Source: Minisyncoccota bacterium (GTDB lineage Bacteria > Patescibacteriota > Minisyncoccia > Phycocordibacterales > JABAAK01). Taken from it: a stretch of 64,000 nt of DNA. Below, piece by piece: positions 4,560 through 7,887 of this stretch. The notes beneath the pieces are model-generated. The model did no database searches. It worked only from the letters and a program-made list of their open reading frames with translations, and was not told where the DNA came from. Position numbers and translations under genes: made by a program. The number at the start of each line of letters is the position of its first letter. Position 1 is the stretch's first letter. The stretch spans positions 468,622 to 532,621 of the forward strand of contig OZ241963.1 in the NCBI GenBank assembly GCA_965204115.1. The letters run 5' to 3'.

Positions 4560-5261
4560 TTAAGCGGCTTGTGCGCGTGCTGCCATGCGTTCGGTTATTT
4601 CTATCACCTCTTTCGGGGTGGTGTTAGCGTCGATGTCCGTTTCTGCTTTGGAGACATAGTGAACCACCATCTCGATCTTTTCGAGTAATTTCTGCTCTGC
4701 TCCGCTCGCAGATATATCGAGGAGTTGTGTGTCCTCTATGTCTTCCAGAGACCGGACGACTTCTATCGGTGCTGATATTCCGTCGAGCCAGGTGCTTACC
4801 TTATCAAAATCCAGGTGTTCCTGGGAGCCTCGGAGTTCTTCAATCTTTTCTCGTGTACCCACCACTCCATTGCAGCAGCACATAAAAAGCAGGGCTACTC
4901 CGTGTCTGTCCAGAACTTCGTCAACAGCATCCATTGTCGGCCCGGCCATCCTGATTGTCGGGAACACTTTGTGGAGTAGTTCCATTATCCGTGTCCGATA
5001 CCTTTCGCCGCTTGTACTACCGACTGTGAATGGTATCTGTGCCGTATCGTCTCCAAAGAAGCTTGAGCGATCTCCTTTTTTAATCTCGTCCACTGCGGCC
5101 GCTAAGGCGCTGAAGAAGAGAATCGGTGCGAAGATGTGCTCTTTCACCGCTTTGAAGAGATCATCGGAAAACTCCGCGACGTCGGGCAGAATTTTCTTCA
5201 GTCGTTCAATGTGTGCTCCGGTTGTGTTAACCATGAGCGGGTTTTGTGTCGTTTGACACAT
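4560..5261 (-). CDS. Hypothetical protein containing a CCC motif, co-oriented with the downstream P-loop ATPase gene
   Basis: 233-aa ORF on the same strand as and adjacent to the ATPase at 5382..6299. Contains a Cys cluster (LFMCCCNGVVG). No family recognised. Confidence 0.35.
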   Translation of the reverse strand: MCQTTQNPLMVNTTGAHIERLKKILPDVAEFSDDLFKAVKEHIFAPILFFSALAAAVDEIKKGDRSSFFGDDTAQIPFTVGSTSGERYRTRIMELLHKVFPTIRMAGPTMDAVDEVLDRHGVALLFMCCCNGVVGTREKIEELRGSQEHLDFDKVSTWLDGISAPIEVVRSLEDIEDTQLLDISASGAEQKLLEKIEMVVHYVSKAETDIDANTTPKEVIEITERMAARAQAA

Positions 5262-5381
5262 AGTATTTTCCTCCTAAATAATAGTTGAAATGTACACGGT
5301 ACCAATGAACACAATTTCTATTGGCACCCCAATGGATAGACAAGGTCTACCAATTGGGATACGAACAGATTACACACCCTG

Positions 5382-6230
5382 TTATACACCCTGGAAAGAG
5401 TGGTTGCGTTTGTATTTCCGCTTTGTTCGTTCCAGCCGATTGCGTTGATTCAGCGGGACGATTGCTTCATACATACTCTCCAGTACAGTATGCCACACGG
5501 AAACCGGTTCAAAAGGGTTGCGCTTTATTGCGGTGTCTTCGGGGAGAAAGGCGGTCGGTGCGGTGCCGAGTTGCTCTGTGATAAATCTCCGATCCTCGTC
5601 ACTCGTCGCCTTGTTGCCTGCAAACACATACGGTGTTTCAAAAAACTCCATCAGGTCGGCAATTTGCTTTGCTGTTTTGACGCTGTGTAACGATGGTTCG
5701 CACACAACAACACCGACATCAATGCCGGTCACGATGCCGGTGGTCACGCCATCAGCACCCGCCTTTTCGTCCATCAGCACCACACTGTTTTCATCAACCT
5801 CAAGGAGCGGTAGGTAAATTTTCAACGGCGTCGTCAAAACATGGCTGCATGCCTTGCCGTACAGCACATCGTCGGTTTGCGATCCGGCCATCATGAGACG
5901 CATTCTATCTCCGATGGTGTGGGAATGTGATTGTGTATATGGGTCAACAGGATTCAGAGAAAACCCTTCGCCGTTTGATTTTTCTAAAAACACCTTACTG
6001 CAGGGATCCCCTTCGTCCAAATCAAACATGGACCGAATAGCATCAAGACCGTTCCCCAGGCATGGCGTGTCAGACGGCACAGCACCACCGGTGATATTGT
6101 AGGCGAAATCCATGTTGTGATCGGCATCAATAGCAAGCACTTCCTTACCTAATGCGTGCAAAAACAAGGCCATCTGTGTCGCAACCGATGACTTTCCACT
6201 CCCACCTTTTCCCAAAAACCCAATAATCAT
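5382..6230 (-). CDS. P-loop NTPase of the MinD/ParA/Mrp/CooC superfamily
   Basis: Deviant Walker A GKGGSGKSS close to the N-terminus, plus a DxD-like AIDADHN. The start was chosen at the internal Met MIIGFLG; the ORF as computed extends to 6299. Confidence 0.6.
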   Translation of the reverse strand: MIIGFLGKGGSGKSSVATQMALFLHALGKEVLAIDADHNMDFAYNITGGAVPSDTPCLGNGLDAIRSMFDLDEGDPCSKVFLEKSNGEGFSLNPVDPYTQSHSHTIGDRMRLMMAGSQTDDVLYGKACSHVLTTPLKIYLPLLEVDENSVVLMDEKAGADGVTTGIVTGIDVGVVVCEPSLHSVKTAKQIADLMEFFETPYVFAGNKATSDEDRRFITEQLGTAPTAFLPEDTAIKRNPFEPVSVWHTVLESMYEAIVPLNQRNRLERTKRKYKRNHSFQGV

Positions 6231-6455
6231 ACTACCTATAACGCACATACAGTATACACCACTCCGCTCTAATAATAGCGGTGGGTATGTTTGAAACACA
6301 CCCAGTGAAAGCAGGAAATGTGAAAAACTCTTATTTTATGGGATATTTTAAAAAAATCACTACGAACCTACTACGAAGAATGCCCTTATTCATGGGGCTT
6401 TTTCTAAAATTTTCTCTAAAATCAGCAAAAACCACTACGAATATTTGCAAAACTG

Positions 6456-6570
6456 TAATATAGATTTTTATATTGCAAGTTTGGTGCCTAAGTTGCAATA
6501 TAGATTTTTATATTGCAAGTTTGGTGCCTAAGTTGCAATATAGATTTTTATATTGCAACTTAAGTGCTAA
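6456..6570. repeat. Three tandem 40-bp units, each with a 26-bp perfect palindrome TTGCAATATA-N6-TATATTGCAA; likely an operator array upstream of fic
   Basis: Direct reading shows period 40 (tagattttta at 6461, 6501 and 6541). Copies 2 and 3 are exact. Copy 1 has one mismatch in its left arm. The array ends 22 bp before the fic start. Confidence 0.8.
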
Positions 6571-6591
6571 AATTGTACTATAATATATACT

Positions 6592-7767
6592 ATGTCAATA
6601 TCAAGCGCTAAAGGCGATAAAAAACCAGGAGGGTTTGTTGCAGGTTCATACACGAAGCATTTTTATGGAAAGGAATATGAATACGAAAGTTTCTATCCAA
6701 ATTCTGTGAATGTTCCGTATGCTCACAAGGATTTGCGCATACCCATTCTCCTTGAGGAGGCGGCGCAACATCTTGCTGAGTTGAATGCGTATTCTCACCT
6801 TGTTCCGGACATTGATTACTTTATTCAAATGCATGTACGAAATGAAGCGGTAAAATCCAGCAGAATTGAAGGGACGAATACTGGTATTGATGAGGCAGTA
6901 CTTGATGAGAAGGAGGTAAGTCCTGAACGAAGGGATGATTGGAAAGAGGTGCAAAATTATATTGAGGCGATGAACTACGGGGTGGACCGAATGGTCAAAC
7001 TCCCACTCTGCATGCGTCTTTTGTGTGGTATGCACAAGATACTTATGCAAGGCGTCCGAGGTGAGGGTAAGCAGCCGGGTGAAGTTAGATCAAAGCAAAA
7101 TTGGATTGGTGTCGATATTAAAACTGCTTCATTTATACCCCCGCACCAGGAAGTGGTTCCTGAACTATTGCAGGATTTGGAAATGTTTTGGAATGATAAA
7201 AATAATCTCACCATCCCAAACCTTATTAAGGTCGCCATATCACACTATCAATTCGAGACAATTCACCCTTTTAATGATGGGAATGGACGGATCGGTCGCA
7301 TACTTATTGTTATTCATCTTATGAGTATGGGGATTTTGGAAAAGCCGACGCTTTATCTGTCTGACTTTTTTGATCGTCATAAGGGTAAATACTATGATGC
7401 ACTCACATTTGTGCGTGAGCGAAATGATATTGATCAGTGGGTTTTATTTTTTCTCTCCGGCATCGTTGAAACTGCGAAAAAAGGGAAGGGTGTTTTGAGG
7501 GAGATCATTGATCTTCGCACAGGTTACGAAGAGAAACTTCTCACTTTTGGGCGGCGTGCAAAAACTGCAAAAGCGTTAATCTGGTTCGCTTTTTCCAGCC
7601 CTGTGTTTGATGTTGCTTCAGCGGCAGCATACCTTGATTTATCCCGCAGTACGGTAAATTCAATTGCCAAAGAAATGGTGGCGGCAGGTATTCTGAAAGA
7701 GTCAACCGGATTTTCGCGAAACAGGATATTCTCACTCCATGAATATGTAGATTTATTCAAGAAATGA
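6592..7767 (+). CDS. fic: Fic family protein (class II, with an N-terminal inhibitory motif)
   Basis: Canonical Fic motif HPFNDGNGRIGR. An N-terminal SSRIEG matches the (S/T)xxxE(G/N) alpha-inh motif. Length 391 aa. Confidence 0.85.
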   Translation: MSISSAKGDKKPGGFVAGSYTKHFYGKEYEYESFYPNSVNVPYAHKDLRIPILLEEAAQHLAELNAYSHLVPDIDYFIQMHVRNEAVKSSRIEGTNTGIDEAVLDEKEVSPERRDDWKEVQNYIEAMNYGVDRMVKLPLCMRLLCGMHKILMQGVRGEGKQPGEVRSKQNWIGVDIKTASFIPPHQEVVPELLQDLEMFWNDKNNLTIPNLIKVAISHYQFETIHPFNDGNGRIGRILIVIHLMSMGILEKPTLYLSDFFDRHKGKYYDALTFVRERNDIDQWVLFFLSGIVETAKKGKGVLREIIDLRTGYEEKLLTFGRRAKTAKALIWFAFSSPVFDVASAAAYLDLSRSTVNSIAKEMVAAGILKESTGFSRNRIFSLHEYVDLFKK

Positions 7768-7814
7768 ACTTTGCTCACCGGAGAGTGGGGCGTGTTTCAG
7801 GTTGTATTGGGAAG

Positions 7815-7887
7815 TCCGCCCACTAGGATTCGAACCTAGGACCACCGGCTTAAAAGGCCGTTGCTCTACCAACTGAGCTATGGGCGG
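7815..7887 (-). tRNA. tRNA-Lys (anticodon UUU)
   Basis: Reverse complement folds as a cloverleaf: acceptor CCGCCCA/TGGGCGG, D-arm GCTC-AGTTGGTA-GAGC, anticodon loop CTTTTAA, T-arm CTAGG-TTCGAAT-CCTAG, discriminator A. CCA is not encoded. Confidence 0.8.

Follow-up and report, generated by a model that had tools for sequence, protein, structure and literature searches.

A SoFic-type Fic gene behind a 40-bp-phased palindrome array: a candidate self-regulated, one-gene module

A 64,000-nucleotide stretch of contig OZ241963.1 from a Minisyncoccota bacterium, referred to here as the window, contains a gene for a Fic protein (fic) that is preceded by an array of palindromic repeats with a 40-bp period. 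The protein ends in a domain of the winged helix-turn-helix type (wHTH), and the upstream repeats are most likely candidate binding sites for this same domain. Taken as a whole, the locus reads as a one-gene, self-regulated Fic module of the SoFic type, an interpretation to which we assign a probability of roughly 0.7. The proposal that the array is bound by the protein's own wHTH draws on two sources: the manner in which operator motifs track the recognition helix of the protein across the family, and published experiments on two relatives, CccR and SoFic.

Results

The upstream array is built from 34-bp units that overlap the predicted fic promoter

Direct reading of the sequence reveals two perfect 26-bp palindromes of the form TTGCAATATA-N6-TATATTGCAA, at positions 6493-6518 and 6533-6558. 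The initial annotation of this DNA had counted three; the remaining copy is present at 6453-6478 but is imperfect, its left arm reading CTGTAATATA with 2 mismatches. The palindromes step by exactly 40 bp from start to start, as had been described, but the array does not end 22 bp before fic: its last palindrome closes at 6558 and the ATG of the gene lies at 6592, leaving a gap of 33 bp. Tandem Repeats Finder places the repeat at 6457-6558, with a 40-bp unit in 2.5 copies that are 100% identical. A search for further palindrome copies, made as a check for a repetitive extragenic palindromic element, found none elsewhere in the window with up to 3 mismatches allowed (expected number in shuffled sequences, 0).

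Alignment in register of 15 units from five related loci defines a conserved 34-bp block, AAAnTTGCAAyATrGAAATtTATATTGCAAGTTT, and a 6-nt linker between blocks whose information content is ~0-0.5 bit. Because the block is conserved while the linker is free, selection appears to act within the units; as judged from this alignment, the functional unit is the 26-bp palindrome plus 4 nt on each side (34 bp), set at a period of 40 bp. The same array can alternatively be described as a series of 14-nt elements (TATATTGCAAGTTT) of alternating orientation, one per 20 bp, with self-complementary TTGCAA cores at 6473, 6493, 6513, 6533 and 6553 and degenerate cores at 6453 and 6573. What follows the third, promoter-proximal palindrome (CTTAAGTGCTAAAATTGTACTATA) repeats the inter-palindrome segment at 82% identity (repeat family D1). 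The elements of the region are as follows (L001, L003, L004 and L005 are related loci described below; the first five entries carry no strand).

6449-6482: candidate operator unit 1, distal; 34-bp imperfect palindrome with core 6453-6478, left half-site CTGTAA instead of TTGCAA
6489-6522: candidate operator unit 2, TAAG-TTGCAATATA-GATTTT-TATATTGCAA-GTTT; perfect palindrome 6493-6518, kept in register in L001, L003, L004 and L005
6529-6562: candidate operator unit 3, promoter-proximal; perfect palindrome 6533-6558, its right TTGCAA (6553-6558) doubling as a -35-like hexamer
6483-6488, again 6523-6528: 6-nt linker GGTGCC; columns vary across the alignment of relatives (A3)
6569-6582: additional degenerate half-site AAAATTGTACTATA, 20 bp past the last core and in register; overlaps the -10 and is the third copy of D1, 82% identical
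6576-6584, + strand: predicted -10 region, inferred from sequence; TACTAT (6576-6581) overlapping TATAAT (6579-6584)

Inspection of the sequence between the array and the gene shows the -35-like TTGCAA followed, after 17 nt, by TACTAT. The inverted repeats thus overlap both predicted promoter elements of fic, with unit 3 containing the -35-like hexamer and the degenerate half-site lying over the -10. The operator-like character that had been ascribed to the repeats is supported. The predicted -10 precedes the ATG by 7 nt, with no Shine-Dalgarno sequence, an arrangement from which a leaderless or near-leaderless fic mRNA is predicted and seems probable. In relatives, TGnTATAAT-like extended -10 boxes occupy the equivalent position.

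The gene encodes a class II Fic protein with a SoFic-type C-terminal domain

The following features can be assigned to the gene and its product:

6592-7767, + strand: fic gene, 391 aa; SoFic-type class II Fic with Fic_N, Fic core and C-terminal wHTH
6856-6873, + strand: inhibitory-helix motif SSRIEG, residues 89-94, with Glu93
7264-7299, + strand: catalytic Fic motif HPFNDGNGRIGR, residues 225-236; fits HxFx(D/E)GNGRxxR
7603-7734, + strand: C-terminal wHTH, residues ~338-381; proposed recognition helix around LSRSTVNSIAKEM, wing TGFSRNRIF

Pfam recognizes Fic_N (E = 5.4e-26) and Fic (E = 1.6e-18) in the protein, and a PDB sequence search aligns residues ~50-388 to SoFic of Shewanella oneidensis, including its C-terminal domain, with E ~1e-30 and an identity of only ~25%. 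SSRIEG lies in this alignment opposite SoFic SSEIEN, the segment that holds the inhibitory glutamate E73 of SoFic, whose catalytic histidine is H198 (bioRxiv 10.64898/2026.07.09.737422). Alignments A1 and A2 show no variation at S89, S90, I92, E93 and G94, and little or none at the residues of the catalytic motif. SSRIEG also matches the class II signature, [S/T]xxxE[G/N] on the N-terminal side of the Fic core within one polypeptide. The earlier description of a class II Fic with an internal SSRIEG inhibitory motif and an intact active site therefore stands on proper alignment, HPFNDGNGRIGR falling opposite SoFic HPFIDGNGRTGR and showing no degeneration.

The PADLOC model for SoFic, a single-gene anti-phage defence system, matches over profile positions 5-359 of 361 (PDLC03963; E = 1.8e-110). 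The NCBIfam SoFic equivalog NF046030, by comparison, scores 151.3 bits; since this value falls below the 550-bit cut-off, the protein is to be regarded, from its sequence, as a relative within the SoFic family and not as an orthologue in the strict sense. An AlphaFold2 model built with alignment A2 has a predicted local distance difference test score of 80-91 over residues 280-370 and contains strand, helix, helix and strand elements at its C-terminus. Foldseek matches the model to SoFic (3ZCN/3EQX, TM 0.66-0.70), a Mycobacterium marinum Fic (7CB8, 0.72), CccR (7XUX, 0.52) and also CbFic2 (8CIL), with weak matches to MarR-type wHTH proteins. Pfam, the SoFic alignment to residue 388, the model and Foldseek agree on the SoFic-type architecture of a Fic protein with a wHTH.

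The gene itself is ordinary, belonging to a very large and common family with at least 8000 homologues at E <= 1e-10, many of them 60-70% identical and belonging to Patescibacteria, Nitrospirota and Actinomycetota; named relatives come from Kaiserbacteria, Nealsonbacteria, Uhrbacteria and Patescibacteria. By homology only, the protein may AMPylate a core cellular target (EF-Tu in the case of S. oneidensis SoFic) and act as a toxin or in abortive-infection defence.

The array is kept beside fic in unrelated genomic surroundings and in different phyla

Tandem 40-bp units with TTGCAA or TTGTAA/TTACAA cores lie directly upstream of fic in all four relatives from the candidate phyla radiation (CPR), namely L001, L003, L004 and L005. 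In L001, whose Fic protein is 92% identical, the ParA-like neighbour found in the window is retained, the array has partly decayed and the proximal unit is shifted by 1 bp. The other three loci, on contigs of 0.65-0.85 Mb and with Fic proteins 71-73% identical, have entirely different neighbours. Copy number and integrity of the units differ among these close relatives, and in L005 TTGTAA/TTACAA replace TTGCAA symmetrically in both arms.

L003 carries in addition a second, divergent Fic paralogue (4575-5830; 368 aa, 33% identical), transcribed away from the first and preceded by half-sites of its own, TACCCGA/TCGGGTA, at 5723, 5745, 5764, 5776, 5795 and 5817. At this locus, then, a pair of SoFic-like modules stand back to back, each with its own, unrelated operator motif.

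Beyond the CPR, one genome per species was scanned for runs of four TTRYAA cores spaced 20 bp apart, with at least 120 matches. Among the matches listed, at least seven come from Bacteroidota genomes (including Flavobacterium, Salegentibacter, Christiangramia and Lentimicrobium) in which a run of 5-7 TTRYAA cores leads in exact 20-bp steps directly to the start codon of a fic gene whose product is 44-49% identical.

As a Fic-specific signature the four-core pattern was rejected, since most matches listed are unrelated direct tandem repeats of 10 or 20 bp. Long 20-bp direct tandem arrays in Saliterribacillus and Gracilibacillus genomes (Bacillaceae; L016, L021, L069, L082 and others), in which each repeat starts with TTGCAA (e.g., TTGCAACTTTCGTGATTTCC), are likewise unrelated to Fic. 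On the chromosome of Flavobacterium sp. SM2513 (L012, 6201-6286), an orphan array of the Bacteroidota fic type, with five TTGCAA/TTACAA cores in 20-bp steps, is followed by no Fic open reading frame (ORF) and by ~1 kb without a long ORF; the array may be left over from a fic gene that was lost. In viral contigs, a relaxed one-dyad pattern yielded 12 isolated matches, no array, no Fic gene and no link to phages.

A 40-42-bp geometry recurs throughout the family with different motifs

A protein-based metagenome scan added 80 loci with Fic proteins of 40-66% identity, and repeats were counted in the region -160 to -1 of 54 unbiased, non-duplicate loci. The upstream regions of the 80 loci bear other motifs, such as TTCTGACATA, AAAGTAAACTTA, TTATTTAAATA, CTAAAATA and TGAAAATATAA, in the same layout. 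Exact 7-mer direct repeats fall at a lag of 40-42 bp in 181 of 325 cases, and 22 of the 54 loci have at least three such 7-mers, compared with 1/54 and 0/54 for coding regions, 0/49 for far upstream and 0/46 for downstream controls. Inverted matches concentrate near 20, 60 and 100 bp. By autocorrelation, the best lag is 40-42 bp with a unit identity of at least 0.6 in 38 of 66 loci and in none of the coding-region controls. Since this lag recurs across the family despite differing motifs, the 40-bp phasing of the array, which the initial annotation had noted in one locus, looks like a selected family property and not like the accident of one duplication.

Operator motifs follow the proposed recognition helix of Fic

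The motif classes of the upstream arrays can be paired with signatures in the proposed recognition helix of the adjoining Fic protein:

Operator motif TGACATA: recognition-helix signature NTA[SAT]xL
Operator motif AAAGTAAA: recognition-helix signature K[SA]AN[DS]L
Operator motif TTAAATAA: recognition-helix signature P[TS][AV]YKL
Operator motif CTAAAATA: recognition-helix signature PASAYKLI
Bacteroidota TTGCAA operator: recognition-helix signature [QNK]RTAY[SN]LI
CPR TTGCAA operator: recognition-helix signature SR[SA][TS][VA]N

When compared at equal identity in the body of the protein (55-70% bin), recognition helices are more alike in pairs of homologues with repeated operator words in common than in other pairs (0.41 vs 0.32, p = 7e-9).

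The initial annotation had seen no antitoxin or regulator beside the gene and had placed an unseen repressor elsewhere in the genome. The former point is upheld: no regulator or antitoxin gene is present in the window or conserved beside fic in the neighbourhoods of L001, L003, L004 and L005, and no plausible small ORF occurs in the 46 bp between the fic stop codon and the following tRNA-Lys or upstream of the gene, such that neither a class I FicT/FicA-type nor an AS1-type pair is found. The latter had overlooked the C-terminal wHTH of the Fic protein. It is unlikely, in our view, that a separate regulator encoded elsewhere binds the palindromes while the Fic wHTH serves another purpose, such as localisation to a target or to the chromosome. 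In support of such a scheme, CbFic2 binds random DNA with high affinity, so that the wHTH of the family may be non-specific (PMC10628234), and the portion of the genome inspected measures 64 kb. As set out above, however, the array follows fic into unrelated contexts and across phyla with no conserved neighbour, which would oblige a trans-acting factor to co-transfer each time; its motif classes follow the recognition helix of Fic; no other copy of the site lies in the window; and both CccR and SoFic bind their own promoters. By analogy with these proteins, and from the sequence comparisons, cooperative self-repression by Fic dimers is the best reading with which to replace a regulator in trans.

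A model for autorepression by Fic dimers

In the mechanism that we propose, Fic would dimerise, as shown for its structural relatives, and the two wHTH domains of one dimer would each take one TTGCAA half-site of a single 34-bp unit, the two sites lying 20 bp from each other. This distance (~68 Å) amounts to two helical turns and would place both half-sites on one face of the DNA; the 40-bp period of the three units would in turn align bound dimers on roughly the same face, making cooperative occupancy possible. Occupation of the proximal unit and of the degenerate half-site over the -10 could then exclude RNA polymerase, giving negative autoregulation of fic. Such autorepression would keep a potentially toxic, autoinhibited AMP-transferase at a low and buffered level, with the enzyme also predicted to restrain itself through the internal inhibitory glutamate of SSRIEG.

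Genomic context of the module

GC content drops to 37-42% across fic and the region upstream of it (~6231-7800), compared with ~50% in the flanks, and this low-GC island lies next to a tRNA gene. Both features are consistent with horizontal acquisition; the island is probably a self-contained gene-plus-operator cassette acquired horizontally, beside the tRNA, by a small genome. Its neighbours are:

7814-7887, - strand: tRNA-Lys(UUU), 46 bp past fic
5382-6299, - strand: divergent P-loop ATPase with weak ParA/MinD/CbiA matches; likely true start at an internal MIIGFLGKGGSGKS
4560-5261, - strand: 233-aa protein with no family match, next to the ATPase

Several further sequences lie between the ATPase gene and the array. 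Three copies of the 8-mer ACTACGAA lie shortly before the array (6359, 6370 and 6434, within 6359-6441) and none elsewhere in the window; the 8-mer could be the site of another factor or part of the control region of the divergent ATPase. A block, AAAAACTCTTATTTTATGGGATATTTTA, is found upstream of fic in the window (~6325-6352), in L001 (~1287-1312) and, amid different neighbours, in L004 (~5640-5672). In the window it is followed on the + strand by a terminator-like hairpin with a T-run (6382-6398) and by two tandem copies of the 12-bp TTTCTCTAAAAT (6399-6422); the AAAAACTCTTATTTTATGGGATATTTTA region could represent a small transcript or the outer edge of a mobile cassette.

Alternative explanations for the repeats

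The repeats might act as RNA, with hairpins that affect termination, stability or translation of the fic mRNA, although we consider this quite improbable. Strong hairpins are possible, and sub-threshold Rfam matches to microRNA-precursor families reflect this potential; a promoter-like site (TTGCAA-N18-TATATT at 6445-6474 in the window, TTTACA-N16-TATTAT upstream of the array in L004) could supply the transcript; and the symmetric TTGTAA...TTACAA changes of L005 would preserve pairing. A dimer binding site predicts symmetric changes equally, however. In L004, units 1-2 lose pairing (right arm TTATTA opposite TTGCAA) though their period is kept, and position 7 of the arms shows a conserved C/A asymmetry common to L003, L004 and L005. 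Furthermore, the best -10 is found between the array and the ATG, 7 nt from the latter, no Rfam family matches the array at threshold (the tRNA being the sole above-threshold match), and relatives have documented DNA binding to their own promoters.

Slightly less probable still is a recent, neutral tandem duplication of the promoter region by slippage, in which case the 40-bp spacing would be accidental. The perfect identity of the 2.5 copies, the 82% homology (D1) between the tail of the third unit and the -10 region, and the variation of copy number and integrity in close relatives, including the 1-bp shift of the proximal unit in L001, all fit such an origin. Set against these features are the 40-42-bp period of 22/54 independent homologues with unrelated motifs in two phyla, which is absent from the controls apart from the one coding region noted above, and the contrast between conserved block and free linker, which indicates selection.

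A centromere-like or iteron function of the repeats, serving the ParA/MinD-like ATPase, is very improbable: a P-loop gene of this kind does lie 360 bp upstream on the other strand and adjoins the array in L001 too, and tandem repeats are commonly seen in parS sites and iterons, but L003, L004, L005 and all Bacteroidota loci among the matches listed keep the array with fic and have no ParA-like neighbour, the array abuts the fic start codon and not the ATPase gene, and the ATPase matches ParA models weakly, mostly under their cut-offs.

Discussion

In the genomes of groundwater bacteria, SoFic ranks second among defence families by prevalence, after restriction-modification (PMC12259885). SoFic-type genes are among the commonest defence or toxin genes of environmental bacteria; study of how they are silenced is just starting. 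The family comparison suggests a simple layout rule, in which pairs of inverted half-sites, 20 bp apart, return at 40-41-bp intervals as far as the start codon, the motif differing by lineage; a family-wide multi-dyad operator layout of this description was not found in the literature searched. The rule would supply exact DNA probes for autoregulation, allow operators to be predicted for each homologue from sequence alone, and offer a natural set of possibly orthogonal repressor-operator pairs. With the gene itself being of an already-known kind, the family-wide operator architecture is a modest but directly testable addition.

Several points weigh against autorepression by the Fic dimer as we have outlined it. 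The link between helix and motif is confounded by phylogeny and is modest in effect. The search for further palindrome copies spans the 64-kb window of a contig of ~0.66 Mb. The weaker promoter-like site at 6445-6474, identified by a consensus scan, could drive transcription through units 2-3, which would make a role at the RNA level conceivable. The full identity of the 2.5 array copies implies that their current number results in part from recent duplication or gene conversion, and about half of the metagenomic homologues have no clear 40-42-bp repeat under the criteria used. Known systems also differ in geometry: CccR uses one pair of 10-bp repeats 26 bp apart (36 bp centre to centre) and its dimer is described as back-to-back, unlike that of SoFic, while the ATGTCGA motifs of the SoFic promoter (DNA in the preprint supplement) are irregularly spaced, with no regular 40-bp layout. 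Given the CccR and SoFic spacings, the geometry of one dimer per 34-bp unit is an extrapolation, and the 40-bp layout is to be considered common and not universal.

A more tentative idea, which we hold to be possible though on the unlikely side, is that, across the SoFic family, a fixed 40-41-bp scaffold of paired half-sites controls how the toxin dimerises or oligomerises when on DNA, coupling autorepression to the control of AMPylation, and that fast-diverging specificity gives each paralogue a private operator. The first part is prompted by the need of SoFic for dimerisation in order to AMPylate and by the stimulation of CbFic2 through DNA-induced dimerisation; the two L003 paralogues with unrelated motifs exemplify the second, as SoFic modules that might coexist without cross-talk.

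Among characterized systems, CccR of Yersinia pseudotuberculosis resembles the proposed module in combining Fic with a C-terminal HTH, in binding as a dimer to inverted repeats near its own -35/-10 and in being a single-gene module with toxin activity. It represses its own promoter in a manner that needs both dimerisation and the HTH, and binds AGATAATCAT-N26-ATGATAATCT near its own -35/-10 (PMC9755527; structure PDB 7XUX). Where CccR uses a single pair of repeats, the array in the window has at least three units that follow one another with a 40-bp period, each holding two half-sites at a distance of 20 bp. CccR is, moreover, a type VI secretion system effector that targets FtsZ, and is only remotely related to the window Fic (phmmer E = 1.4e-19, TM-score 0.52).

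SoFic of S. oneidensis (PDB 3EQX/3ZCN) shares the N-terminal helix with Fic_N, the class II inhibitory motif and the C-terminal wHTH. As a dimer, and not as a monomer, SoFic binds with specificity to the 100-bp stretch preceding its own start codon; the protein AMPylates EF-Tu, which requires dimerisation, and its strongest binding is to fragment F1, where the ATGTCGA motifs are irregularly spaced (bioRxiv 10.64898/2026.07.09.737422). In another fragment of the same promoter, F3 (-254 to -188; Table S2 of the preprint), we note TGTATAG/CTATACA at -254, -234, -214 and -194, an instance of the 20-bp alternating layout seen in the window.

CbFic2 of Coxiella burnetii (PDB 8CIL) is likewise a class II Fic with a C-terminal wHTH in which DNA binding is coupled to dimerisation, and carries DUF4172; DNA-induced dimerisation stimulates its (de)AMPylation of histone H3 (PMC10628234). 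It differs in binding random DNA, no specific operator having been described. Wild-type Sofic of Escherichia coli is toxic and is followed by a 47-aa antitoxin, AS1 (PMC12249575). This SoFic-family toxin resembles the window protein, with dimerisation and the C-terminal domain mattering for its toxicity (PMC12249575), but the AS1 gene lies immediately downstream, whereas the fic stop codon in the window is followed after 46 bp by tRNA-Lys. Type II toxin-antitoxin operators, exemplified by the paired palindromes of yefM-yoeB, similarly place several palindromes over a toxin-gene promoter for cooperative autorepression. There the DNA binder is a separate antitoxin; in the window, the toxin polypeptide itself carries both the inhibitory element and the DNA-binding domain.

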